From Chloroflexota bacterium (GTDB lineage Bacteria > Chloroflexota > Limnocylindria > Limnocylindrales > CSP1-4): a stretch of DNA of 64,000 nt. Position numbers and translations under genes: made by a program. Below the pieces are notes generated by a model. The model did not search any database. It had not been told where the DNA came from and worked only from the letters and a program-made list of their open reading frames with translations. The DNA is taken from positions 1,130 to 65,129 of the forward strand of contig VBEC01000024.1 in the NCBI GenBank assembly GCA_005883615.1, given 5' to 3'. Below, in pieces: positions 4,130 through 44,501 of this stretch (the first letter of the stretch is position 1; the number at the start of each line of letters is the position of its first letter).

Positions 4130-5593
4130 TCAGTCAGCCTGCCCGCGCAGCATCCCGGGGATCGTCCCCTCGAGGGCGAGTCCGCCGAGCGCGAGGATGG
4201 CCAGAAGCGCTCTGAGCCCGATCGACCCGGCGGCCGGACCCGAGGTTGCCGCCAGCGTAATCAGGGAGGCGCCGGCGACCAGCAGCGTCATCCGCCACCA
4301 GGGGAATCCGACCCTCACTCGCCTTCCATTCGCGAGCAGGCGAACGGTGGCGACCGCCGTGAATTGGCCAACAACCACCGACAGCGCCGTCCCCGCGCTG
4401 CCGAGGGCGGGCGCGAGCACCAGGTTTGACAAGAAAGTCACGGCGACGCCGCAGATCGCGGCAATGCCGAGGTCGCGCATGGCGCTGTCCATGGCACTCG
4501 GAAGGCACGCGACAACGTACAGCCCCATTGCGAGGGCTGCGACAAGCATGGCCCCAACTGCGGGCAGTACGGCCGGAAAACGGCCACCGGTCAGGAGCCC
4601 GACGACCTCCGGGGAGACCAGGGCCAGGCCAACGACGCCGGTCGCGACGACCGCGAGGATGCGCTGTCCATCGAGCGCGATGTGCCGCAATGCTGCATCG
4701 CCTCGGCCTAGCGCATAGGCGCGTGGCTGCCAGGCCAGCTGGAACCCCGCGACCATCAGCGCGGCGACAGAGCCGAAGCGCAAGGCCACCGAAAACTCGC
4801 CAGCAGCCACCGCGCCTGCCGTTCGATAGAGGTATGCCCGGTTGACGAAGTCGGCGATGCACGTCGCGGCAATGGCAGGAGCCAGCGGAAGCCCGAGCTG
4901 GAGCAGACGGCGCGCATCGGGTAGCTGTGGGCGGGCGCCGATGCTGTGCCTCAGCGCGAGGGCCGCGACTGCCGCCGTGCCGCCCCAGCTCGCCAGCAGC
5001 GCGACCATCAGCGCGACCGTGTCGGCTCGCCATTGGAGGAGCAATACGATCGCAAGAGCGGCGTTGGCTCCGAGGTAGGCGCCTTCGAGGAGCGCATAGG
5101 CGCCCGCGCGTCCCTGGACTCGCAGAACGGTCAGCGCCAGGGTGTGGAAGACCCCTCCGAACAGGATCAGGCCCACGAGTGCGATCGCCGGTGCGTGGGC
5201 GGACTCGCCAAGGAGCACCTGGCTGATAGGGCCCGACGCGAGGATGAGGATGGCGGCGACCGGGAGTACCACGATCCCCGCAATGGCATACCAGGTTCCG
5301 AACAGGGCCCTGCGGTCCTGGGTGCGTTCATCGAAGGCGAGGCGCGTCGTCGCGACGTCCATGCCGAGGACCAGCGTGCTCACGCCTGCGCCGGCCAGCG
5401 CGCTGATCACGTCGAACCGCCCGAATTCGGAGGGCGTCAGCAGGCGCGTCAGGACCGGCAGCATCAGGAATCCGATGGCCTTGCCGGCCACGGCGCCGAG
5501 CGCGAAGACCAGCGAATCGCGCGTAAGCCGGCCGAAGCCCGGGCGCACACTCAAGACGTCGCCCGGTGCGACCACGCCCAGCGTCTCGGTCAT
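4130..5593 (-). CDS. Wzx-like oligosaccharide flippase
   Basis: About 12-14 TMs; LPVLTRLLTPSEFG motif. Start moved to ATG 5593, which has TAGAGT 7 nt upstream. Confidence 0.85.
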   Translation of the reverse strand: MTETLGVVAPGDVLSVRPGFGRLTRDSLVFALGAVAGKAIGFLMLPVLTRLLTPSEFGRFDVISALAGAGVSTLVLGMDVATTRLAFDERTQDRRALFGTWYAIAGIVVLPVAAILILASGPISQVLLGESAHAPAIALVGLILFGGVFHTLALTVLRVQGRAGAYALLEGAYLGANAALAIVLLLQWRADTVALMVALLASWGGTAAVAALALRHSIGARPQLPDARRLLQLGLPLAPAIAATCIADFVNRAYLYRTAGAVAAGEFSVALRFGSVAALMVAGFQLAWQPRAYALGRGDAALRHIALDGQRILAVVATGVVGLALVSPEVVGLLTGGRFPAVLPAVGAMLVAALAMGLYVVACLPSAMDSAMRDLGIAAICGVAVTFLSNLVLAPALGSAGTALSVVVGQFTAVATVRLLANGRRVRVGFPWWRMTLLVAGASLITLAATSGPAAGSIGLRALLAILALGGLALEGTIPGMLRGQAD

Positions 5594-5705
5594 TCCCGGC
5601 ACTCTACTCGCTGGCCAGCGCTTGACGGCGCCACTCTGAACTCCCATCAGGACAGCGGTACGTTCAGCCTCAATCCTGCCGGCCTGTCCGCCTACACTTC
5701 GGCCA

Positions 5706-6530
5706 ATGACGGACGATCCAGCTGCGCGCTCGCTTTCGATCGTGCTGCCGGCGTTCAACGAAGCCGCCCGACTTGAGCCTGCGCTCGACGAGCTGTTCGG
5801 CTACCTTCGGCGCAGAGATGGCCGCGGACGCGCCGGCCTGCCGGGCCCAGCCAGCCTGCCCGCCGCCATCGAGATCCTGGTCGTCGACGACGGAAGCACG
5901 GACCGAACCGCGGAGCTCGTTCGCGCCCGATCTGAGTTCGGCGTTCACGAGGGTGCGCCGCTACTCAGCTTGCTGTCAGTCGCGCACGTCGGCAAGGGAG
6001 CCGCCGTCCGGGCAGGGATGCTCGCGGCCACCGGGGATCTGATCGTGTTTGCCGACGCGGACATGGCAACGCCCCCCGACCAGATCCCGCTGCTCGTGCA
6101 GGCGCTTGCCAACCACGACCTCGCGCTCGGGAGCCGGATCCAGCCGGACGGGTCGGACATGCGCCGCTCCCAGCCGGGTTACCGGCGGGTCCTCGGCCGC
6201 ATCTTCCATGGCCTTGCCTCGGCGTGGGCGGTAGGACCAGTCGAGGACACGCAGTGCGGTTTCAAGGGATTCACGCGCCCCGCCTCGCGCGACCTTTTCG
6301 CGCGCCAGGAGATCACGAGCATCGTCTTCGATGTCGAGCTCATCTACCTAGCCCGTCGCCGCGGATATCGGATCGCGATCGTCCCGATCCAGTGGAGCGA
6401 CCGGCGAGGATCGCGAATGCGAACGCGGCCGGGACTTGCCATCCGCGTACTGTGGGATCTTTTCCGGATCCCGCTGATTCACCGACGCGTGGGCCGGCTT
6501 GCGCCCGTCGACGAGCGGCCATCTCCCTAG
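5706..6530 (+). CDS. GT2, dolichyl/polyprenyl-phosphate glycosyltransferase family
   Basis: IVLPAFNE, VVDDGSTD, GKGAAVRAG, FADADMATP, DTQCGFK, FDVELI. Confidence 0.92.
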   Translation: MTDDPAARSLSIVLPAFNEAARLEPALDELFGYLRRRDGRGRAGLPGPASLPAAIEILVVDDGSTDRTAELVRARSEFGVHEGAPLLSLLSVAHVGKGAAVRAGMLAATGDLIVFADADMATPPDQIPLLVQALANHDLALGSRIQPDGSDMRRSQPGYRRVLGRIFHGLASAWAVGPVEDTQCGFKGFTRPASRDLFARQEITSIVFDVELIYLARRRGYRIAIVPIQWSDRRGSRMRTRPGLAIRVLWDLFRIPLIHRRVGRLAPVDERPSP

Positions 6531-34398: not shown

Positions 34399-35499
34399 TC
34401 AGATGCGGGTCGTGGCCCAGTACCGCTCGGCGGCGGCGCCTTCGAGGCCGCCCAGCGCCGCGACCTTTGTCGCGAAGGTGCGCACGGCCTTGGCCATTTC
34501 GCCGCCACCGCCAAAGAGCCGATCGATCTGGCTGCTGTAAATCGTCAGGCCCGTGATCTTTCGCTCGAGCTGGTCGGAGACATTCGCGTACTCGGGCCAC
34601 AGGGACACGTCCGCGGGGAGGCGCGCGAGGGCGTGCGGGGGAAGATCCTCGAGCCGGCTGAACTCGCGCCACCAGGCGTACGGGAAATCCTCGTAGAAGG
34701 TGACGATACCCGCCCATTCCGGCCCGGGCATGACCCATCGACGACCATCGCCCAGCATCGCCATGCCTGCGTCACGAACAAGCTGGTGGTCGACGTGGTT
34801 GCCGATGCCGAGCGGAAAATAGACCTTCTGCGGTTCGAGGCGGGCGATCTCGCGACGGAGAATATCCGCCGGGTTGCGATCGTCCGTGCGCGGCATCCCC
34901 AGGAGCTGGTCGTCGCCCTCATAGCCGCGGAACACGGCGTCCGGCAGGTCCAGGAACACGACCGACGCCTCAGCGAAATACGCATAACGCTCGTCTTCCA
35001 GTCGCCGGGCGGCCATCAGATCGCCGGCCGCCTCCGCGGAAACGAGCTCCTCGGTCAGGATGGCACCCTGCGTCGGCTCGTCGTCGATCAGGGGTCGTTG
35101 GCCGATCGCCTCATTGTGGATGTTCGCGCGGCGGTACCACGACGACCGCTGCCAGAAGCGCTTGGCGGCCGCATCGGCTTCGGTTTGGGTGGCCTCCAGC
35201 CGGTCGGTGATGGCGGACCACGCTGGAACGACTTCGCCGGACGGGTCGCCCGGGTAGACCGGACAGTCGTTGGTCAGGCTCGAACGGTTGAACGCCTCGC
35301 TCACCGGCCATAGCGTCTTCGTCCCGAAGCCGAGCGCCTCGCGCTGGTACGAAGTCAGGGAATCCTCGCCGAGCGAGCTCGCTCCCGAATACGCGGTGAT
35401 GATGGTGACGTTCTGTCCGAGCTCGCGGAGGCTCGCAATCAGCCCCCCGCAGGAGAGGGCTACATCGTCGGGATGAGGCGCGACGAAGACATGGGCCAT
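34399..35499 (-). CDS. PIG-L/LmbE-family deacetylase
   Basis: APHPDD, RRLED, FLDLPDA, NHVDH, FYEDFPY, YSSQ. Confidence 0.88.
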   Translation of the reverse strand: MAHVFVAPHPDDVALSCGGLIASLRELGQNVTIITAYSGASSLGEDSLTSYQREALGFGTKTLWPVSEAFNRSSLTNDCPVYPGDPSGEVVPAWSAITDRLEATQTEADAAAKRFWQRSSWYRRANIHNEAIGQRPLIDDEPTQGAILTEELVSAEAAGDLMAARRLEDERYAYFAEASVVFLDLPDAVFRGYEGDDQLLGMPRTDDRNPADILRREIARLEPQKVYFPLGIGNHVDHQLVRDAGMAMLGDGRRWVMPGPEWAGIVTFYEDFPYAWWREFSRLEDLPPHALARLPADVSLWPEYANVSDQLERKITGLTIYSSQIDRLFGGGGEMAKAVRTFATKVAALGGLEGAAAERYWATTRI

Positions 35500-35540
35500 G
35501 GCCGCGCGAGTATACCGAGGGCTACCTGCGAGCCGTCTCC

Positions 35541-36212
35541 TCAGGCGTCGTGGGGGAAGCCCTCGCTGCCGATCAGCGGCACGAAGACGCATGGCCCGTC
35601 GGAGCGTTCGACCCACTCATTGCCCTGTCGTATCACGACCAGCAGCTCCTGCCGGTCGCGCGGCCCAACCGGGATCACCATCCGGCCACCGTCCGGGTCG
35701 AGCTGCTCGCGCAACGCCATCGGGATGGTCGGTGCGGCGGCCGTGACGATGATTCTGGGCCAGGGCGCCTCTTCGGGGACGCCGGCGCTTCCGTCGCCGG
35801 CTCGAACGACGACCGCGTCGGCGAGGCCGAGCTCCTGCAAGCGCCCGCGCGCCTGCGCGATGAGGTCCTCCTGGCGCTCGATCGTGGTCACCTCGGCTCC
35901 CAGCTTCGCGAGTATCGCAGCCTGGTAGCCCGACCCCGTCCCGATCTCGAGCACCCGATCGCCGGGGCGAACGTCCAGCAGCTCGGTCATCCGGGCAACG
36001 ATGTACGGCTGGCTGATCGTCTGGCCTGCCTCGATCGGAAGGGCTTCGTCCGCATATGCCTGCGAACGCCGCCAACCGGGCACGAACAGCTCGCGCGGCA
36101 CCTCGCCCATGGCCTTGAGCACGCGCTCGTCTCTGACCCCCCTGCCCCGCAGCTGACCGGCGACCATCGCCGCGCGCTGGGCCTCGAGCGACCGCTGGCC
36201 GCCGATGCGCAT
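35541..36212 (-). CDS. pcm: Protein-L-isoaspartate O-methyltransferase
   Basis: VPRELFVP, AYADEALPIEAGQTISQPYIVA, VLEIGTGSGYQAA, IIVTAAAP, CVFVPLIG. Confidence 0.96.
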   Translation of the reverse strand: MRIGGQRSLEAQRAAMVAGQLRGRGVRDERVLKAMGEVPRELFVPGWRRSQAYADEALPIEAGQTISQPYIVARMTELLDVRPGDRVLEIGTGSGYQAAILAKLGAEVTTIERQEDLIAQARGRLQELGLADAVVVRAGDGSAGVPEEAPWPRIIVTAAAPTIPMALREQLDPDGGRMVIPVGPRDRQELLVVIRQGNEWVERSDGPCVFVPLIGSEGFPHDA

Positions 36213-36246
36213 CGCTTGAGGATACGCCGGCCCTGATATTCAGAAG

Positions 36247-36852
36247 CTAAGGGCTGGCGCTCGCCTTGGGGGTTGCCGTCGGCTTCTTGGTGGCAGTCGC
36301 GGAGGGCGATGATGACGGTGACGGCGACGGCGACGGCGACGGCGACGGGGACACCTCGGCCGAAGCCGGTGGTTCGGTCGGGCTCGGAGAGGGTGACGGA
36401 AGGGGCGTGAGGATGCCACCCGTGCCCAGGAACACGCCCCATAACAGCAGGCCTGTGAACGCGGCTACGACTGCAATCACGTAGAGCGCTGAGATCCGAT
36501 CGTCGATCCGAACGGCAACTTCCGAGGGCGTCGGGGGTGCCGGTGGGACGACAGTCCTCGCGGGCCGGCCGAAGCGTCGAGCGGGTCCGGTCGGAGCGAC
36601 GGGGAGCGGCAACTCTTCCGCCCCGACTTCCGCATCTGCGTCCTTCGTGGCGGCGGTGGTCAGAGCCGCTTCGTACGCGTCGTCGTCCTCGATCTCCCCG
36701 AGATCACCATCGACATCGTCCTCGGGGAGGGGCTCGTGGGCCGCCATGCTTTCGCTGACCCCAGCCTCGACCTCGGAGTCGCTTTCGGCCTCAGGCGCGG
36801 TCTCTTCGGGCGGGGTCGAGCCCTCTGCCTTGCCCGCATCGCCTTCAGTCAT
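36247..36852 (-). CDS. Hypothetical single-pass membrane protein with acidic N-terminus and Pro/Ser-rich tail
   Basis: D/E-rich first 80 aa, one TM (ALYVIAVVAAFTGLLLWGVFL), PSPSPS tail. Confidence 0.65.
   Translation of the reverse strand: MTEGDAGKAEGSTPPEETAPEAESDSEVEAGVSESMAAHEPLPEDDVDGDLGEIEDDDAYEAALTTAATKDADAEVGAEELPLPVAPTGPARRFGRPARTVVPPAPPTPSEVAVRIDDRISALYVIAVVAAFTGLLLWGVFLGTGGILTPLPSPSPSPTEPPASAEVSPSPSPSPSPSPSSSPSATATKKPTATPKASASP
36314..36349. repeat. Hexanucleotide tandem repeat (GACGGY/G)x6 encoding PS repeats
   Basis: gacggt gacggc gacggc gacggc gacggc gacggg; translates as (PS)n on the minus strand. Confidence 0.85.
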
Positions 36853-36973
36853 CCCGTCGTCGCTTACCTCTGAACGTAGAGATCGCGCGGTTGGCCCGCG
36901 CGCGGGCGCCAGTGTATCGAAGCGGGCCAGTCGACGTCCGGGCCCGACGCCCGCCTCGGCGTTTCTCAGGGGA

Positions 36974-39010
36974 TCAGGCTTCCCTCACCGCCGGTATCAG
37001 CAGGCCGGCGAGACCGGCCCCGATCGCCACGAGTCCGAACACGCCCAATACCGGTGCGACGCCGACAGCCGAGGCGAGCAAACCGCTCAGGCCCATGGCC
37101 AAAGTCAGTGATCCGAAGACGAGCGAGAACCGGAACCCGACCACGCGCCCCATCAGTTCAGGCGGCGTGCGCTCCTGGAACAAGGTCTGGCTCGGGATGA
37201 TGTAGATCATGTTGGCGATGCCCGAGCCGAGGAAGAGGCCAAGCGCGAGTCGCAGCTGGCCAACGAAGGCGAGCATCGCGACGCACAAGCCGAATGCAAC
37301 GTAACCCACGGCGACGAGCCGGCCCTTGGCCAGACGCGTCCCGATAATGCCGATGGCGAAACCACCGATCAGGTTGCCAATGCCGATCGAAGTCTCGAGG
37401 AAGGCGTACGCAGCCTCCGGGTTCAACGGGCCCCGGGTGAGGGCCGTGTCCGCATAGACCGCGGTGAGGGCGGTGAGCCCGCCCGCTGCAAATTGGCCAG
37501 CCGCCCCCTGAAGCGTGTTGGTGAGCAGCACCGACTCATTCCGCAGGAAACGCCAGCCGGCAAGGAGCTCCTTGCGAAGTCCGGGCCGTTTTGGCGTCGA
37601 TTCGCGCTCCCCCCTTCGGATGACCGCCGGCACGACCATCGAAGCGATCATCACGGCTGAGGCGACATACGTCGCGGAATCGAACCAGAACGCGAGCGGC
37701 AGGGCCGTCCCCAGGAAGGCCACGAAGAGGCCTGCCAGGGGATAACCAACAACGTCTGCGACGGTCTCGCCCAGCCACATTGCTGAGTTGGCACTCAGGA
37801 GCTCGTCCTTGCCGACAATCCTGGGCAGGATCGCGGTCCGCGCCGGCCGGAAGAACAGCGAGATCGTAGTGACCAGAAAAATGAGCGGATAGACGAGCAC
37901 GAGGTTGGTCAAGGCGGCGATCGGGATCAGGAGAACCACGGCACCCCGCAGGAGGTCGCTCACGACCATTGTCTCCTGGAGGCTCCAGCGATCCACGAGC
38001 GTCCCGGCAACAGGACTGAGAATCAGATTGGGCAGGGTCGCGGCGACGAACACCAGGGCGACCGCGATAGGGGACTGCGTGGCTCGCAGGACGAGGAACG
38101 CCAGGGCGATCTGGTTCGCGCGGTCACCGAACAGGCTGATGAGCTGGCCCACCCACAAGGCGGTGAAAGACCCGTTCAGGGCAAGGCGGACGAACGGATG
38201 ACCGCGCGCTCGCGCTGCGACCCGGGCGGCGACGCCGGCTTCGGGCGTAACCGGGATCCGCCGCAGCGCCGCCGAGGAGGGCGAGGCCAGGCCGGCTCCG
38301 GCGCTGCCCAGGACGAGAGGGCGCTCCAGGCTCGAAGCCTGTGCAAGCCCGGGCGAAAGGCCGGTCGACCAGGGTCGGCTCCAACCCAGTGGCGTTTGGC
38401 TGAGCGAGGCCCCCGCGTCTGCGGAAGCGGCGCGCAGTTCCTCGGACTCGTCGTAGCGGCGAACGCTCGTCGCGAAGAGGAAGAAGGCGAAACCGGCGCT
38501 CAGGAACAGGTCGCCCACCGACGCGACGTTGCGGATGACCGGGACGGGGATCGGGATGATGTCGCCGATCGGACCGGCATGCAGCAGGAAGCCCGCATCG
38601 AGCGTGGCACGCAGAACGACGTGGAACGTCGAGGGTACGTCCGCGAGCGTGAATCCGGCGGCCGTCAGCGCGCGCTCCCAGATCGGCATGTGGCCGCCGT
38701 TGATAGCGATGGCTGCGGCGTTTGAAAGGATGCCGACGAAACAGAGCAGGAGGCCTGGCTGCCGGCGGTTCAACCAAAGGCCGAACAGGAGCAACACGAA
38801 ACTCAGCGTGTAGAGCGGCAGCCGCAAGGCATCGGCCGGCCCGACGCCTGCATTGATCGCCGCCTCCGTCCCGAAGCGGACGATGACGCCGGCGAACAGG
38901 ACCGGCACGCCCCGCAGCCGGACGTCGGAAATGTTGGTGATGAAGCCGATCAGGCTGCCGCGGGCGAGAAGGCCGAGCATCAGGCCCAGGGCAATGCCCA
39001 GGAGGATCAT
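36974..39010 (-). CDS. DUF5317-like membrane domain fused to an MFS transporter (DHA3/H+ antiporter-like)
   Basis: N-terminal about 185 aa with NAAAIAINGGHMP, GPIGDIIP, SVGDLF (DUF5317 pattern); linker; 12-TM MFS with LWVGQLISLFGD, GTLVDRWS, FFRPA, FQERTPPELMGRV. Confidence 0.8.
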   Translation of the reverse strand: MILLGIALGLMLGLLARGSLIGFITNISDVRLRGVPVLFAGVIVRFGTEAAINAGVGPADALRLPLYTLSFVLLLFGLWLNRRQPGLLLCFVGILSNAAAIAINGGHMPIWERALTAAGFTLADVPSTFHVVLRATLDAGFLLHAGPIGDIIPIPVPVIRNVASVGDLFLSAGFAFFLFATSVRRYDESEELRAASADAGASLSQTPLGWSRPWSTGLSPGLAQASSLERPLVLGSAGAGLASPSSAALRRIPVTPEAGVAARVAARARGHPFVRLALNGSFTALWVGQLISLFGDRANQIALAFLVLRATQSPIAVALVFVAATLPNLILSPVAGTLVDRWSLQETMVVSDLLRGAVVLLIPIAALTNLVLVYPLIFLVTTISLFFRPARTAILPRIVGKDELLSANSAMWLGETVADVVGYPLAGLFVAFLGTALPLAFWFDSATYVASAVMIASMVVPAVIRRGERESTPKRPGLRKELLAGWRFLRNESVLLTNTLQGAAGQFAAGGLTALTAVYADTALTRGPLNPEAAYAFLETSIGIGNLIGGFAIGIIGTRLAKGRLVAVGYVAFGLCVAMLAFVGQLRLALGLFLGSGIANMIYIIPSQTLFQERTPPELMGRVVGFRFSLVFGSLTLAMGLSGLLASAVGVAPVLGVFGLVAIGAGLAGLLIPAVREA

Positions 39011-39082
39011 GTGTCGACCGTAACGCCCCGCGGGGCGCTTCGTACCGTTAGGTGGGTCTTGTCCGCCCGAGAGCGACGGGCG

Positions 39083-40495
39083 CTAGCGGACGTCGGCGCC
39101 AGTCCCAGCCTCGAGGAATGCGCTCGATGCGCTCATGCTCCCGGCAGCCTGCGCGATCAACGGCACCGGCCGCAGGTCCAGCGTGCCACCCGGGTCGGCG
39201 ACCCCCTCGACCCAACCCGTCTTGACGAAGGCATCGACCACCGACGGATCGAACTGGATCCCCGCGAATTTCCGAAGCTCTCCGAGCGCTTGCTCCGCCG
39301 TCAGCGGCTTCATCCGGTATGGACGGGCAGCCGTCATCGCCTCGAACGCGTCGGCGACGTGGAGGACCCTGGCCAACTTCGGAATCTCGTCACCGATCAA
39401 ACGGTCCGGGTAGCCCGAGCCGTTGTACCACTCGTGGTGGTGCCGGATGATCGGCAGCTCCGGGGCCAGTTTGGTGACCGGCGCGATGATCTCGGCGCCC
39501 AGGACCGGGTGGGCATTCATCTTCATCCGCTCATCCCGCGTCAGGCGCTCCTGCTTGAGCAGGATGTTGTCGGGAACGCCGATCTTGCCGACGTCATGGA
39601 GGAGCCCGCCCCATTCCAGGGCCTCCAACTCCGGCTCGCCAAGGCGCATCACCCGCCCGATGTCGGTCGCGATCTGCATCACGCGTTTGGAATGGTTGCT
39701 GGTGAACGGGTCACGCTTGTCCACGGCCTGCGCCAGGCTGGCGATGGTCTGCGTGAACATCTCCCGCATTTCGACGAATCGGTGGTACGCCACCCTTGTC
39801 GTGTAAAGGGGCAAGGCAAACAGAAGAGTTGCCCACCATCCGACGTCAGGGACCTGGTATATCCGCGCCATCAGCCATGCAAGCGGAGCAAGTGCGAATA
39901 GGTTTGTTCCGAACCCTCTCGCGTCGCCGAGTGCGACGACCTTGAAATCTTGTCCGGTACGCAGTGCAACGAGGGTTGCAGTGATGAACACATTCGCCAC
40001 GAAGAAAACACCGGCGCCTGACAGAGTCCCCAAGAAATCGGGCCAGACAGCCGCGGGGCTTGTCTGGATCGTGCTGCACACAATCCCGCCGAGAACAGCA
40101 GGCAGAACGATTACCGCGTGATTCGCGAGGGTCCCGTACCAAGGCACTCGGCCGCGCAGTTCGCGGACTTCGAACGTGCCCACTGCTCCGACCCACCCCG
40201 CGGCGACCGGACCGCCGAGGCTCATTGCGGCAACGATCGGGGCGATGGAGACTGCCACTATCGTGCCCCGGGGCATCCGGACAGGCAAAGCCGAGGCACA
40301 TAACGCCACGAGGATCCAGAAGACGACACCGCCCAGGACGCTGGCCAACCCGTGATCCGAGGGCAGGATGGCGATGTCTTGCTTGATGCCAAGCACCCAT
40401 CCAGGCCTGGCGGAAAACACAAGACTCGTGGCTGCGAGCGAAACAGCACTCGAAACCACGAGTCCGAATATGTAGAGCTTCAGGGACCTGGGCAT
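39083..40495 (-). CDS. Membrane-sensor (about 7 TM, MASE-like) HD-GYP c-di-GMP phosphodiesterase
   Basis: Hydrophobic N-half; DKRDPFTSNHS, LLHDVGKIG, HPVLG, HHHEWYNGSGYP, VADAFEAMT, RPYR. Confidence 0.93.
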   Translation of the reverse strand: MPRSLKLYIFGLVVSSAVSLAATSLVFSARPGWVLGIKQDIAILPSDHGLASVLGGVVFWILVALCASALPVRMPRGTIVAVSIAPIVAAMSLGGPVAAGWVGAVGTFEVRELRGRVPWYGTLANHAVIVLPAVLGGIVCSTIQTSPAAVWPDFLGTLSGAGVFFVANVFITATLVALRTGQDFKVVALGDARGFGTNLFALAPLAWLMARIYQVPDVGWWATLLFALPLYTTRVAYHRFVEMREMFTQTIASLAQAVDKRDPFTSNHSKRVMQIATDIGRVMRLGEPELEALEWGGLLHDVGKIGVPDNILLKQERLTRDERMKMNAHPVLGAEIIAPVTKLAPELPIIRHHHEWYNGSGYPDRLIGDEIPKLARVLHVADAFEAMTAARPYRMKPLTAEQALGELRKFAGIQFDPSVVDAFVKTGWVEGVADPGGTLDLRPVPLIAQAAGSMSASSAFLEAGTGADVR

Positions 40496-40515
40496 CGGAG
40501 TCCTGTACGACTTAC

Positions 40516-40555
40516 ATGCCCACGCACTCTATACCCTCCGAGTTATCGCGGGCAT
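40516..40555 (-). other. Intergenic RNA hairpin between peptide gene and HD-GYP gene
   Basis: Arms ATGCCCGCG / CGTGGGCAT (9 bp incl. one G-U) with inner ACTC/GAGT stem. Confidence 0.5.
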
Positions 40556-40568
40556 TAGGTCATGCGTA

Positions 40569-40658
40569 CTAGAAGCCCCTAAATGACGCTCCGCCGGCAA
40601 GAGCAGTGGCCGCCACTGCCCCGAGGACAGTGAGCAGGCGATACAGCCTAGCCTTCAT
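40569..40658 (-). CDS. 29-aa signal-peptide-like small protein MKARLYRLLTVLGAVAATALAGGASFRGF (putative signalling-peptide precursor)
   Basis: Manual translation; SD AAAGGA 7 nt upstream of ATG; basic n-region, hydrophobic h-region, short polar/aromatic tail; lies between riboswitch and HD-GYP gene. Confidence 0.8.
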   Translation of the reverse strand: MKARLYRLLTVLGAVAATALAGGASFRGF

Positions 40659-40684
40659 CTGTCGATCCTTTGTCCTTGCCTTGT

Positions 40685-40717
40685 CTACCAGGGCTTGGTC
40701 GCGCTCTCAGGATTCAC
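40685..40717 (-). CDS. 10-aa uORF MNPESATKPW
   Basis: GTG start 7 nt after a perfect GAGGAGG, TAG stop at 40685. Confidence 0.4.
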   Translation of the reverse strand: MNPESATKPW

Positions 40718-40750
40718 GCTCGATCCTCCTCGCGGCCTTCGTGTCCAAGA

Positions 40751-40786
40751 AACACGAAAACCGACCAGACTGATTAGGTCGGTCGG
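40751..40786 (-). terminator. Intrinsic terminator forming the riboswitch expression platform
   Basis: CCGACCGAC-CTAATCA-GTC(T)GGTCGG followed by TTTTCGTGTTTCTT. Confidence 0.8.
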
Positions 40787-40851
40787 TTGCACTACTCGCT
40801 CCGCCCCACCCTAAGTGCCCATTTCAGGTGGGGCTTCGGCGCATTCCGAGC
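40783..40851 (-). ncRNA. Cyclic di-GMP-II riboswitch aptamer
   Basis: TCGGAA...GAA-GCCCCACC-TGAAATGGGCACTTAG-GGTGGGGC-GGAGCGAGTAGTGCAA-CCGA: P1 TCGG/CCGA, 8-bp stem, loop GGGCAC able to pseudoknot with GTGC, and the conserved GAG..AGTAGTGCAACCG 3' segment of the class II consensus. Confidence 0.88.
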
Positions 40852-40863
40852 GTCTTCACATCG

Positions 40864-40889
40864 CTTCCTAGTACTGAAGTACTGGGAAG
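40864..40889. promoter_or_regulatory. Near-perfect palindrome just downstream of predicted TSS (5' hairpin or operator)
   Basis: CTTCC-T-AGTAC-TGAA-GTACT-G-GGAAG. Confidence 0.55.
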
Positions 40890-40897
40890 TGAGCCGG

Positions 40898-40927
40898 ACT
40901 ATAGGTAGCCCGGAGTAGACCGGTCAA
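40898..40927 (-). promoter_or_regulatory. sigma70-type promoter for riboswitch/peptide operon
   Basis: TTGACC-N18-TATAGT on the minus strand. Confidence 0.75.
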
Positions 40928-40946
40928 TACGTCAGGTTACCTATCC

Positions 40947-43900
40947 TCACAGAGAATCCAAGGGCGGTGGCTCGATTCCGAGCTGGTCCCGCATCATCGT
41001 GGCATAGTGTCCGTACTGTTCGGCGGCCGCCGCGTGAGCGCCCGTCAGTCGGTAAAGTCTGAGAAGCGAGACCTCGATACCGTCGGCGTCTGGATCGATT
41101 TCAACAGCGCGCCGAGCGATCGCGATCGCGCGATCGAAGTGAGCTTGCCGGGTGTCGTCCGAAACCGATCTTTCAACCACCTCCAGGTACGCTGCATGGA
41201 GGGAGTCCCGGTAGCTACCAGCCCATTCCTCGTACGAGAAATCGAGTGCAAAACGGCCGGTGTAGAACGAACTGATCATCTCGATCGTATCCGAGGATGG
41301 CGCCCCTCTTACGCTCCGCAGAAGTTCTCGACAGTGCACACTTCGGGCGCGGATGAGGGTTTGGTCGAGCCAGATCACATCCGAATCGTGATGGACATAC
41401 CCCGCCGACAGGTCGTCCTTGTACCCGGGCTCGAAGGCTCTTCGCAAGAAATAGATGGTCTGGTTGAGAGAGTTGACTGCAACGACGGGCTCGAGATCTG
41501 GCCACAGCGCCTCAAGCACCTCGTCACGAGTCGCCGCCAGATTCGGGCGGGTTATCAGGAAACAGAGAAGCGACAGAACTTTGCGACGCAATTCCGTGCC
41601 GAGGATGGTCCGCTGTCCAACCGTGACTGCCACGCGTCCCAGGTCTTCAACAAAAACCGCAGGTGCCAGCCTTCGAGCCAGTCCTCTCCCCAACTCCGGA
41701 TCCGCCAGCGCTCCCTTGAGGCGCTTTGCCAGCGACCTGAGCACAAGCACATCCTCTTCGGCGCCCACGAGATCAAGAAGGCGTGCGGCCGCGGCACCGT
41801 GCTTGCCAACGGTCCGGATTCCATCCCGGAGAGGCTGGCGCCAGCGCTCGGGTCGTAATGCGACCTCGGAGGTGAGCCGACTCATGCTGTCGTCATCGAG
41901 ATCGCCAAGCCGCCCCACGATCGCCTCGGCAGCCATGCTTAGGATGGCCGGGTCCTCCAAGGCGATCGATCGAATCCCGGCGTTCATCGAGGCAGCTGGC
42001 TCCAGCACGAACCTCAACAGACGACAATAGCGAACCCATAGACCCGCACGTTGCTTGCGAGCCCATGCACTCGCGCGATCGACGATTTCAGAGGCATCGC
42101 GGCTCGATCTGCCGATCGCAATTTGCGCTTGCATGGCAAGTTGCCTTGAACCGTAAGCGGACTCTGCGGTGAATTCGTCTCTATCCAATGCGGCCACGAG
42201 GTCGGCGGCCTCTTCGAGACGAGATTGGCGGATCAGGGAATGCGCAAGCGACAGATTCCTAAGTCCGGAGAATTGTGGCTGCCAAATTGCGTAGCCATGA
42301 GCCTCGTGGAGCATCTGCTCGCCTACCAAGGCATCGCCGTACCAGTTTTCTATGTCGGCGGATTCGATCAGGACCTCCGCCTTTCCTAGCGCATGGGCCG
42401 ACGAGACAGCGACCCCAGAGGCGGCGCGGGCCTCGGCTAGTCGGCCTTCGTGCGCAAGTCCCCAAGCTAAGGCTGACTTGGCGGACGCCACTTCGTGCCC
42501 AGCTGAGGTCCCTTCCAGAAGCGTTGTGGCGTCAGACGCAGCCTTCACTGCTCCAGGCGCATCGCCCAGCGCCCGGCAAGCTGCAGCGACATTGTGGTAA
42601 GTGATCCCCAGATAGTGCTCGTGACCCCTCGCTTCCTGTTTGCGGGCCATGGCCATCAAGTGATCGCGGTAGCCGACGATGTCCCCGAACGTCGAGCTTT
42701 CGACTGCTAGGCGCAAACCTTGGGCGATCATTCGCAGATCGCCCTCCTGTGTCCGCTGCTCAAGCTCCTTGGCCCGCTCGCGCGCATCCTTGAGATTCCC
42801 AGCCGTGAAGAGCAGTGACATTAGGTTGGCAAGAGCTAGGTTCGAGATGTCGCACCGATCCTCTTCCCCAAACGATTCATATGCGAGGTGTGCCCGCCTG
42901 AGGGCCGCGCTGATTCGATCGGCGTTAATGTCAATACGCGAAAGAATCATTTGGACAACTGGGGTGGAGCTATACGCCGAAAGACTTTCGACATAGGACG
43001 CCGCGCGAGCGAACTCTCCACCACCCATGACTATTTCGACAGCGCCGATAATTACGGAGAACAAGGATGCGGTGTCACCAGTGTTCGCGTAATGGTAAGC
43101 CGCCAAACCCCAGTCCCTGCTTTCGGCAAACCGTGCGATCGTTCGGTGAAGTTCAACTACCCCTTCCGCGCCAATCTCGCGCCTGAGGCGCGCCTCCAGG
43201 AAGTCGCGCACGAGTGGATGGAAGCGCAGCGAAGAGTTGGCCAGTTCGGCGCGACGCGATATCAGCCCGAGGCGCTCAGATTCGTCAAGTGCCTGTCCGG
43301 CGTCCTCGACCGTCCGACCTGTTACGACGCTCGCAAGAACGGGATCGACGGTTTGGAGGATCGACGTGCGCATGAGAAACGCCTGCAGCGCCTCATCCAA
43401 GGTCCCGACCACTTCCTCGGCCAAGTAGTCGTGAAGCTCCCCATGCGCCCCACTGAGGTTGCGGATGAAGGAGCGCACCTGGGCGGCAGATCTGTCACGG
43501 AGGGCGGATTGGACGAGTTGCAGCGAGGCCGCCCAGCCTTCGGTTCGATGCGACAGGTCCGATAGCACGTCGGGATCGAGCGGACGGCCATAGGTATCGC
43601 GGAAGAGGCGTTCGGTCTCGTCCTGGTCGAAACGCAGATCGTCGGTCGTCAACTCGGCGATCTCGCCCTGGGCGCGGAGTCGGGCGACAGGCAAAGTCGG
43701 CACCCGTCGGCTGAGGACCACCAGCGTCATGCGCTCCGGCGCTCGCGTCACGATATCGCGCATGATCGCCTGCACCTCGGGGACATCGTCCACCAGGTGG
43801 TAGTCGTCGAATATCAGGATCGATCCCGAACCCAGTGTCCCGAGCTCGCGGATGAACGCCTCGACCACTGTGGACCGACTCGGCGCGCTGGTGCCCAGCT

Positions 43901-44324
43901 CGCGCAGGAGGCCGAACGTGCCAGGAGCGAACGTTGGGTCTATTTGGCGGCCTGCCGCGACCAGGTAATTGATGAAGCTGACCCAGTTGCGATCTTCCTC
44001 GTCGAGCCGATACCACAGGGTCGGTGGCCGACTGCGACGCGCGAAGTCCGACAGCAGCGTGGTCTTGCCATAGCCCGCTTCGGCGCTGACGAAGATCAGG
44101 CGGCTGTGGATCTTGCTGTTCAGCCAGTCGAGGAGGCGATCGCGGCGCAACGTTTCCGCGCGAAGGGGCGGTCGCTGTACTTTCGTGGCCTGGATCGGGA
44201 ACGTGCCGGATGCGTTGTCCGCTGGAGGCACGCCGCTATCAGCCCCGTCTCCGTCGTTTCGATCAGAACCGACCGACTGCTCAGGATCGGGAGCCGGGGA
44301 CGCTTGGTGGACGCCCTTGCTCAT
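40947..44324 (-). CDS. Large STAND-type transcriptional regulator: MalT-like NTPase, helical sensor region, C-terminal winged-helix plus BTAD (SARP-like)
   Basis: ATKVQRPP, Walker A AEAGYGKTT, WYRLDEED, LIFDDYHLV, TEGWAASL, YLAEEV, FHPLVRDFL; C-term RDEVLEALWPD, YEEW, AVEIDP, LGIEPPP. Start uncertain (44324 or 44393). Confidence 0.88.
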   Translation of the reverse strand: MSKGVHQASPAPDPEQSVGSDRNDGDGADSGVPPADNASGTFPIQATKVQRPPLRAETLRRDRLLDWLNSKIHSRLIFVSAEAGYGKTTLLSDFARRSRPPTLWYRLDEEDRNWVSFINYLVAAGRQIDPTFAPGTFGLLRELGTSAPSRSTVVEAFIRELGTLGSGSILIFDDYHLVDDVPEVQAIMRDIVTRAPERMTLVVLSRRVPTLPVARLRAQGEIAELTTDDLRFDQDETERLFRDTYGRPLDPDVLSDLSHRTEGWAASLQLVQSALRDRSAAQVRSFIRNLSGAHGELHDYLAEEVVGTLDEALQAFLMRTSILQTVDPVLASVVTGRTVEDAGQALDESERLGLISRRAELANSSLRFHPLVRDFLEARLRREIGAEGVVELHRTIARFAESRDWGLAAYHYANTGDTASLFSVIIGAVEIVMGGGEFARAASYVESLSAYSSTPVVQMILSRIDINADRISAALRRAHLAYESFGEEDRCDISNLALANLMSLLFTAGNLKDARERAKELEQRTQEGDLRMIAQGLRLAVESSTFGDIVGYRDHLMAMARKQEARGHEHYLGITYHNVAAACRALGDAPGAVKAASDATTLLEGTSAGHEVASAKSALAWGLAHEGRLAEARAASGVAVSSAHALGKAEVLIESADIENWYGDALVGEQMLHEAHGYAIWQPQFSGLRNLSLAHSLIRQSRLEEAADLVAALDRDEFTAESAYGSRQLAMQAQIAIGRSSRDASEIVDRASAWARKQRAGLWVRYCRLLRFVLEPAASMNAGIRSIALEDPAILSMAAEAIVGRLGDLDDDSMSRLTSEVALRPERWRQPLRDGIRTVGKHGAAAARLLDLVGAEEDVLVLRSLAKRLKGALADPELGRGLARRLAPAVFVEDLGRVAVTVGQRTILGTELRRKVLSLLCFLITRPNLAATRDEVLEALWPDLEPVVAVNSLNQTIYFLRRAFEPGYKDDLSAGYVHHDSDVIWLDQTLIRARSVHCRELLRSVRGAPSSDTIEMISSFYTGRFALDFSYEEWAGSYRDSLHAAYLEVVERSVSDDTRQAHFDRAIAIARRAVEIDPDADGIEVSLLRLYRLTGAHAAAAEQYGHYATMMRDQLGIEPPPLDSL

Positions 44325-44501
44325 GGGGCCATCAGGCCTCTGCCGGGCCAGCTTGCTCCTGGCGACGGCGGATCCGGGGTTGCGCAAGGGCATGGCGGCA
44401 ATGGTGCCCGACGCCCCTCATCCACCGATTAGCTGCGCGCACTGAGCCTCGCGTCGGCCGACCATCCCACCGTCCAGGAGGCATCCGGCGATCGCCTGCC
44501 G

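Follow-up and report, generated by a model that had tools for sequence, protein, structure and literature searches.

DUF5317, fused to an MFS transporter in Limnocylindria, as a probable partner of a co-encoded membrane mini-peptide in a c-di-GMP-linked operon

LspA (signal peptidase II, MEROPS A8) is a small polytopic membrane protein with a conserved Asp pair and Asn at the outer-leaflet boundary and β elements lying on the membrane, and its targets are N-in/C-out signal anchors, which it handles beside small residues. The GxGD proteases (PilD/FlaK, presenilin and signal peptide peptidase, SPP) have an x-G-D motif at the start of a transmembrane (TM) helix together with a second conserved Asp. 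Peptidase-containing ABC transporters (PCATs) carry a processing domain N-terminal to the exporter, with a gene for a small Gly-Gly peptide nearby, and in LplT-Aas a transporter of the major facilitator superfamily (MFS) is fused to a membrane-associated enzyme that uses the substrate it transports. Co-encoded in the SHP/Rgg (Eep, PptAB) and AgrD/AgrB/AgrC systems are a precursor of about 20–45 amino acids (aa), basic at its N-terminus and hydrophobic in its body, a polytopic membrane enzyme that processes it, an exporter and a receptor in the membrane. Here we analyse a locus that shares features with each of them. It lies in a 64,000-nucleotide (nt) stretch of a Chloroflexota bacterium of the class Limnocylindria (assembly GCA_005883615.1, contig VBEC01000024.1, positions 1,130–65,129), referred to below as the window, and is centred on a 678-aa protein in which a DUF5317 domain is fused to an MFS transporter (36974..39010, minus strand). 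A sequence-only reading of the window had suggested that this domain may be an intramembrane aspartyl peptidase of the LspA/GxGD kind, which would mature a neighbouring peptide for the MFS half to export. Our analysis indicates that DUF5317 is probably the partner of a membrane mini-peptide encoded in the same operon. Residue numbers below are those of the window fusion protein, and positions are those of the window.

From the N- to the C-terminus, the fusion comprises DUF5317 (PF17248), a linker of about 85 aa and a complete MFS_3/DHA3-type transporter. The DUF5317 domain (aa 1–183; 38462..39010, minus strand) has five TM helices and a four-stranded β element in an outer loop. Its PF17248 match spans aa 30–178 (profile positions 2–150 of 151; E 3e-23; 82.9 bits against a cut-off of 25), and the same family is matched by all 89 aligned relatives. 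The interval to which the sequence-only reading referred, 38450–39010, corresponds to aa 1–187, i.e. to this domain. The cytoplasmic linker (aa 184–267; 38210..38461, minus strand) ranges from 59 to 147 aa in 54 fusions (median 99), among which its sole stretch with at least 80% conservation is the island L-x-R-P-x-x-L-G (aa 228–235, nt 38306–38329), which may be a docking or regulatory motif. The 12-TM transporter (aa 268–678 plus the stop codon; 36974..38209, minus strand) matches PF05977 MFS_3 (aa 280–667, E 2.6e-30, 105.8 bits) and PF07690 MFS_1 (aa 285–630, 89.4 bits), both above cut-off. The DHA3-type NCBIfam model TIGR00900 is covered over its full length (positions 1–364 of 364) at 198.6 bits, below its cut-off of 319.6, so the MFS half is a member of the superfamily and not of the named equivalog. 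Weaker NCBIfam matches include EntS, Mef, Tap and LplT, the last also as the LplT part of LplT-Aas fusions, and a phmmer search with the MFS half returned no solved homologue. Three motifs lie in the DUF5317 domain: NAAAIAINGGHMP (aa 97–109, nt 38684–38722), GPIGDII (aa 146–152, nt 38555–38575) and SVGDLF (aa 164–169, nt 38504–38521). Family matches and motif positions thus bear out the earlier description of a DUF5317-like domain with two Gly-Asp motifs joined in one open reading frame (ORF) to a full MFS transporter.

We then assessed whether the fusion is genuine, using 80 loci obtained by scanning GTDB species representatives, most of them labelled Chloroflexota or 'Ca. Limnocylindria'. 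DUF5317 and MFS lie within a single ORF in 70 of these 80 species-level relatives; in six more the contig ends inside a still-open ORF, and the four frame-split cases are without exception long-read MFD metagenome-assembled genomes (MAGs). With 60 relatives, the window protein aligns over the full length. The window gene is covered without insertions or deletions by contigs of four independent soil metagenome studies, and one 3,013-nt metagenome contig spans 36900–39359 with no differences. In a first homologue search all 120 relatives had been 342 aa or shorter, and in two genomic contexts from that search the DUF5317 gene and the MFS gene behind it stood in different frames; the C-terminal tails of those split proteins are Arg/Pro-rich, out-of-frame readings of the MFS start. 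An exhaustive representative search (E≤1e-3) yielded 1,398 clusters with many intact fusions of 646–726 aa at 38–62% identity. The intact fusions across relatives and the indel-free metagenome contigs show that the fusion is genuine, conserved class-wide and ancestral to the class. An assembly artefact or a recent accidental fusion, which the sequence-only reading had named as a way in which it could fail, is thereby ruled out. In six MFD long-read MAGs (L001, L003, L016, L037, L042 and L175), frameshifts split the fusion gene as well as its neighbours (HD_5, PCMT and regulator genes); one of these, P0174/L175, had looked like a natural unfused DUF5317 and MFS pair and was set aside as uninformative, being a long-read assembly with many split genes. 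Such frameshifts leave databases with hundreds of truncated 'DUF5317-only' proteins whose out-of-frame tails are Arg/Pro-rich, an annotation hazard that masks the fused architecture in word-indexed protein-database searches.

An AlphaFold model of the window domain, built with 89 sequences, has high confidence (predicted local distance difference test, pLDDT, 94.1; predicted TM-score, pTM, 0.85). It places TM helices at aa 2–17, 35–53, 63–79, 87–103 and 165–183 and an amphipathic helix at 20–28, and the 104–164 loop contains four short β-strands (108–111, 130–133, 150–154 and 161–164) and two short helices. A second model, of a standalone member at 30% identity, shows the same plan (pLDDT 89.4). 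The N-terminus of MFS transporters is cytoplasmic; fusion to it, together with five TM helices, gives DUF5317 an N-out/C-in orientation. The loop charges agree, loops 1–2 and 3–4 being basic and loops 2–3 and 4–5 acidic. In the modelled domain, the conserved Asp/Asn/Ser cluster faces the extracytoplasmic side.

This cluster is strongly conserved. Among 260 clade sequences, D150 (codon 38561–38563) and D167 (codon 38510–38512) are each found in 259, as is S164, with G166 in all 260, N97 in 257 and N104 in 251; G106, M108, P109, P153 and P155 are almost invariant. Twelve positions are also invariant in remote standalone members at 27–38% identity: N81, G93, N97, N104, G106, M108, P109, D150, S164, G166, D167 and G173. 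The conservation of both Asp residues across DUF5317, on which the peptidase idea depended, therefore holds. The His of NGGHMP, on which the earlier description misleads, is variable (Y 113, H 51, R 25, F 23 and W 19 of 260) and is ruled out as a catalytic residue. H130 and N161 are conserved within the clade only. In both models D150 and D167 flank the β-hairpin 150–154/161–164 at the extracytoplasmic end of TM4 and TM5, and this hairpin, read from the DSSP strings, suggests that the two residues are adjacent. The polar residues that are invariant throughout the family (N97, N104, G-x-M-P 106–109, D150 and S-x-G-D 164–167) are grouped around the hairpin.

The neighbouring peptide that the sequence-only reading postulated exists and accompanies DUF5317 beyond the lineage. 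A 29-codon gene in the same operon (40569..40658, minus strand; Shine-Dalgarno AGGA, 7 nt spacing, ATG start) encodes the single-pass peptide MKARLYRLLTVLGAVAATALAGGASFRGF, for which neither Pfam nor NCBIfam gave a match. Of 60 clade loci whose upstream sequence is long enough, 59 carry the peptide, with the consensus end AGGAS[LF][RK]GF followed by the stop. Peptides of this design combine a basic N-terminus with a single TM helix, a patch of small residues (AGG/GAG) and a [RK]-G-[FW] or [RK]-W-x ending, and the positive-inside rule places their C-terminus on the same outer face as the DUF5317 cluster. Remote standalone DUF5317 genes lie in unrelated neighbourhoods, with neither an MFS gene nor a riboswitch, and similar small ORFs adjoin them. 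We searched 23,509 six-frame segments (1.24 Mb) with a hidden Markov model (HMM) of the peptide, after adding 80 further remote loci from metagenomes. About 105 matches were retrieved at E<1e-3, all in DUF5317 loci and all on the DUF5317 strand, and most of them no more than a few hundred nt away from DUF5317 or its operon; the rest of the 64-kb window gave no match better than E = 8. Among 63 remote standalone loci with at least 450 nt of downstream flank, the HMM found the peptide in 35 (36 with one variant), usually 126–340 nt downstream of DUF5317. A design-based small-ORF control returned no candidates on the opposite strand, and a generic search for small TM ORFs in the 28 remote loci lacking an HMM match added only the one variant. 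The peptide is thus a frequent, not a universal, neighbour of DUF5317.

The remote peptides fall into two subtypes, ending …LGAG[MI][RK]W and …AGRRW, which sometimes occur in tandem. Three loci (L135, L136 and L151) have a tandem pair beside one standalone DUF5317, one of each subtype (…GAG[MI][RK]W and …AG[RQ]RW), and L153 has two similar copies near one DUF5317. Three more divergent DUF5317 subtypes also have a small N-basic hydrophobic ORF nearby. In L170 it is the peptide MKTVRRIMIALGSLAALALAGGAHWRAG, an HMM match; in L171 and L172 the order is peptide (an HMM match), two HD-GYP genes and DUF5317, with no MFS gene in L171; and in L173 and L174 a 38-aa N-basic hydrophobic ORF, similar in design only, lies 40 nt upstream, with a PAS-GAF-HD-GYP gene downstream. 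L168 has a convergent HD-GYP gene and no peptide. In L171/L172, a PMT_2 (GT-C type) glycosyltransferase gene (4591–6237) directly follows DUF5317, the two HD-GYP genes and the mini-peptide gene preceding it.

The peptide's end also changes with the domain. Where DUF5317 position 111 is W or Y, the peptide ends in basic-G-aromatic (60 of 61), and where that position is small or polar, the peptide has basic-W (39 of 40). This Trp swap hints at direct contact between DUF5317 and the peptide. The core conserved unit is DUF5317 plus an N-in/C-out peptide of about 30 aa, which follows DUF5317 and not the operon; the MFS fusion, the HD-GYP gene and the riboswitch described below are lineage-specific additions to this module.

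In the window, the module is set in an operon headed by a riboswitch. The 450-nt spacer upstream of the HD-GYP gene holds a promoter-like site, a riboswitch and two mini-ORFs. The promoter-like site (TTGACC-18-TATAGT; 40898..40927, minus strand) is the sole sigma-70-like match in 35400–41100, and RNA contigs start at 40862–40876, about 20–35 nt downstream of it. The aptamer (40772..40856, minus strand) is a cyclic di-GMP (c-di-GMP)-II riboswitch by its match to RF01786 (59.2 bits against a gathering score of 53.5, E 2.5e-11, model positions 1–84 of 84), and RF01786 scored above the gathering score in all eight relatives tested (56–68 bits). An nhmmer model of the aptamer found it in 60 clade loci and in no remote locus, with visible compensatory stem changes (covariation); neither Rfam nor nhmmer placed a riboswitch beside remote standalone DUF5317 genes. 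A terminator/anti-P1 hairpin, read from the sequence as the expression platform, lies at 40750..40788 (minus strand): AACCGACCGACC, which overlaps the 3' part of the aptamer, pairs with GUCUGGUCGGUU and is followed by a U-tract, and the same hairpin and U-run are predicted in most of 21 relatives folded. Since the terminator and the aptamer's P1 are mutually exclusive, ligand-stabilised P1 would prevent termination, and we infer an ON switch. The canonical aptamer above gathering score and the P1-competing terminator are shared with c-di-GMP-II riboswitch operons in the literature, from which this one differs in belonging to Chloroflexota (Limnocylindria); our literature search found no paper tying the c-di-GMP-II class to Chloroflexi or to operons of HD-GYP, DUF5317-MFS and mini-ORFs.

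Between the riboswitch and the 29-aa peptide gene lies a 10-codon mini-ORF, MNPESATKPW (40685..40717, minus strand; Shine-Dalgarno AGGAGG, GTG start). It has exactly 10 codons in 50 of 61 clade loci, and in these K8 and an aromatic residue at position 10 are constant (50 of 50 each). Its Pro3 is encoded by all four codons, and its consensus is M-x-P-[EDQ]-x-x-x-K-[GPST]-[WFY]. In L028, L029 and L075 the …KG[WF] unit is repeated in tandem and in frame. The 10-codon ORF could encode a peptide product or be a regulatory leader peptide. Like the riboswitch and the MFS fusion, it is clade-specific.

Downstream of the peptide gene, a 470-aa protein anchored in the membrane by about seven TM helices (39083..40495, minus strand) is, by its domain and motifs, an HD-GYP c-di-GMP phosphodiesterase: it matches PF13487 HD_5 (aa 254–419, E 5e-39), carries LHDVGK (aa 299), HHHEW (the HHE motif, aa 352) and GSGYP (aa 359), and has a weak MASE9 match in its N-terminal part. 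The gene lies directly upstream of the fusion in 75 of the 80 relatives, and HD_5 genes adjoin three remote DUF5317 subtypes. Across the class, the elements keep the order regulator, riboswitch, mini-ORF, peptide, HD-GYP and fusion. Within the HD-domain core, 39348–39483 shows a five-fold depth spike in all four DNA runs, probably from k-mers common to other HD-GYP genes, and two of the runs have a contig that omits 114 nt (39454 to 39569), which would correspond to a variant of the HD-GYP gene with 38 aa deleted in frame.

Expression of the leader is visible in soil metatranscriptomes, whose contigs cover 40489–40876, so that both small ORFs are transcribed; in a related strain, a 949-nt RNA contig runs from the leader into the HD-GYP gene, which shows that read-through occurs. 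RNA contigs of three soil metatranscriptomes stop at 40489 or 40477, at the HD-GYP start codon, and a terminator-like site lies at 40424–40439, inside the 5' end of that gene. The leader with both mini-ORFs may accumulate as a separate short transcript (40477–40876, minus strand).

How DUF5317 might act on its partner can be outlined at decreasing confidence. That it is a dedicated outer-face recognition/processing module for the mini-peptide, with putative catalysis, is the likeliest reading and has close to an even chance in our estimate, and actual hydrolysis is a tentative proposal, somewhat short of even. The peptide helix would dock laterally on DUF5317, its C-terminal basic-aromatic end entering an acidic, Asn-lined pocket, and the D150/D167 pair would then probably hydrolyse the peptide next to the small-residue patch, so that an unrelated fold would perform an operation like that of a signal peptidase or LspA. 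In Limnocylindria, DUF5317 is fused to an MFS exporter and accompanied by the 7TM HD-GYP protein and a 10-aa peptide ORF ending in K-G-W, all of them behind the riboswitch. High c-di-GMP would turn the riboswitch on and with it a peptide production/export unit together with a c-di-GMP-lowering enzyme, a negative feedback. In its fullest form, DUF5317 would found a new family of outward-facing membrane aspartyl hydrolases whose substrates are co-encoded N-in/C-out mini-proteins; the MFS-fused enzyme of Limnocylindria would release …[KR]-G-[WF] peptides sensed by the 7TM HD-GYP protein, and the loop would close via the c-di-GMP-II riboswitch. We regard this complete scheme as unlikely.

Several observations weigh against a processing role. 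The D150–D167 distance and any pocket are inferred from the models. S164 and D167 stand at the N-cap and N3 positions of helix 165–183, and S-x-x-D is the classical helix N-capping box, so a structural reason for their conservation also exists. An adjacent peptide gene is absent from 27 of the 63 remote loci, and a remote group (P0298-like) has neither an exporter nor an HD-GYP gene nearby. Beyond R-W, the peptide has a poorly conserved tail of 0 to 6 residues, which argues against a defined released product. The Trp swap represents few independent evolutionary events, and no RNA contigs cover the fusion gene itself, such contigs showing presence and not absence. DUF5317 is also without sequence or fold likeness to any peptidase: the 89 members compared with Pfam at E≤10 matched no peptidase family (no A8, A24, A22 or presenilin). 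The capping box and the variable tail keep a non-catalytic partnership in play, in which DUF5317 (and, in the clade, the fused MFS) has the mini-peptide as a stable small subunit or as a regulator, as in AcrZ-AcrB, KdpF or MgrB-PhoQ, while the Asp pair only binds the terminal Arg/Lys. An Ala/Gly/Ser-rich helix suits helix packing, a terminal R/K with an aromatic residue is a typical interfacial anchor, and the Trp swap fits contact as well as catalysis. We nevertheless consider such a fixed partnership somewhat unlikely. Twelve invariant positions, among them two Asp and three Asn, at 27% identity exceed what packing usually needs, and so many invariant polar residues point to a substrate or cargo more than to a fixed subunit; so do the tandem divergent peptide paralogues and the multi-copy expansions of the 10-aa ORF, which fit a stoichiometric subunit less well. 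The absence of an adjacent peptide from nearly half of the remote loci also speaks against it.

The original proposal, a peptidase of the LspA/GxGD kind that cleaves a leader before MFS export as a proton-driven counterpart of PCATs, could draw on two invariant Asp residues, one of them in x-G-D (S-[IV]-G-D) at the start of a TM helix, on a co-encoded peptide with a Gly-Gly patch and on the fusion to an exporter. The peptide partner and the conserved Asp pair stand; the kinship and the geometry do not, and we hold this version to be very improbable. Foldseek comparison of both DUF5317 models with the PDB gave best E values of 1.1 and 1.7 with no TM-score above 0.32, and LspA, FlaK/PilD, presenilin homologues and SPP were absent from the matches listed for either model; the family profile had no match among PDB sequences and no LspA chain at E≤10. 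Homology to LspA, GxGD proteases or any peptidase, C39 included, is excluded by these searches and the Pfam comparison, and the modelled fold has no solved counterpart. DUF5317 has five TM helices with the β element between TM4 and TM5, whereas LspA has four with a β-cradle after TM1, and the candidate substrate lacks the lipobox Cys (L-[AS]-[GA]-C), the partner peptides carrying A-G-G or G-A-G instead. Unlike the GxGD proteases, in which the Asp residues lie in adjacent TM helices (YD/GxGD or two GxGD) and the site is directed toward the cytoplasm, DUF5317 has its first Asp, D150, in a β-strand of the outer loop and its predicted site directed outward. The PCAT analogy is topologically wrong for the same reason: the C39 Cys protease is cytoplasmic and cuts before ATP-driven export, whereas the window protein has neither a C39 nor an ABC domain, shows no homology to PCATs and carries its conserved site on the extracytoplasmic side, so that any processing would occur outside, as with LspA or signal peptidase, and could not precede export.

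Two further explanations were considered. The 29-aa peptide could be a membrane-active effector resembling leaderless bacteriocins or phenol-soluble modulins, with DUF5317 protecting the producer or passing the peptide to the MFS half. It is short, cationic and hydrophobic with a terminal aromatic residue, some loci carry several tandem paralogues, an exporter is fused in the clade, and c-di-GMP control would fit a biofilm-linked product. The peptide is, however, uniformly hydrophobic, as a TM helix is, and not amphipathic; antagonistic peptides are not usually conserved to such an extreme across a class, the exporter is missing from the remote groups, and neither PADLOC nor bacteriocin families gave a match, which makes an effector quite improbable. 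Alternatively, DUF5317 may have nothing to do with the peptide, being an outer-leaflet lipid- or ion-directed enzyme or binding domain that feeds the MFS half, with the peptide serving the HD-GYP receptor or being a separate small protein. The weak LplT matches of the MFS half, the GT-C-type gene directly downstream of DUF5317 in L171 and an Asp/Asn cluster that could bind a cation are compatible with this. LplT-Aas itself is arranged differently, the Aas enzyme being C-terminal and cytoplasmic, whereas DUF5317 is N-terminal, membrane-integral and, as modelled, outward-facing. We judge an unrelated function to be highly unlikely, given that the peptide accompanies DUF5317 in loci with neither HD-GYP nor MFS, that the adjacency is strand-specific and highly non-random, and that the Trp swap links the two.

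Around the operon, the regulator gene (40947..44393) encodes a 1,148-aa AAA/BTAD (SARP-like) protein, and G+C falls to 0.61 over 40000–44000, which spans this gene and the leader, against 0.66–0.69 elsewhere. Downstream of the fusion, a 201-aa ORF (36247..36852, minus strand) is acidic at its N-terminus, contains a single TM helix and ends in a tail rich in Pro and Ser; it was rejected as the peptide in question and is not part of the core, being recognisable in only 21 of the 80 relatives and having no family match. Still further downstream, synteny of the PCMT and PIG-L genes is kept in about 55 of the 80 relatives. A defence-system reading of the locus was discarded, PADLOC returning only a trivial HD similarity to Cas3.

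Compared with SHP/Rgg and Agr, which have the same set of parts if the 7TM HD-GYP protein is taken as a possible receptor, the locus shows no homology to Eep (a site-2 protease, S2P), AgrB or PptAB, and its output would be c-di-GMP turnover and not a transcription factor or histidine kinase. DUF5317 has no characterised homologue, and our literature search found no paper on DUF5317 or PF17248. In the literature searched, the coupling of DUF5317 to a peptide and its riboswitch/HD-GYP setting are undescribed, and we rate the system as lying outside the known kinds, with a predicted function.

For a family of about 1,400 sequence clusters at 50% identity, these results offer a first way into function, with a topology that is fixed, a small set of invariant residues on the outer face and a cognate mini-peptide across distant lineages. 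The genetic tie to the peptide far beyond the lineage makes a peptide-handling role for DUF5317 plausible. The conserved 10- and 29-codon ORFs are absent from family-library annotation and easily overlooked by gene callers, a further annotation hazard. In Limnocylindria, a globally abundant, uncultured soil class, DUF5317 is embedded in a c-di-GMP circuit of riboswitch and HD-GYP protein. If DUF5317 proved catalytic, it would represent a new class of membrane peptidase; if not, it would form a new small-protein/receptor pair tied to second-messenger control.

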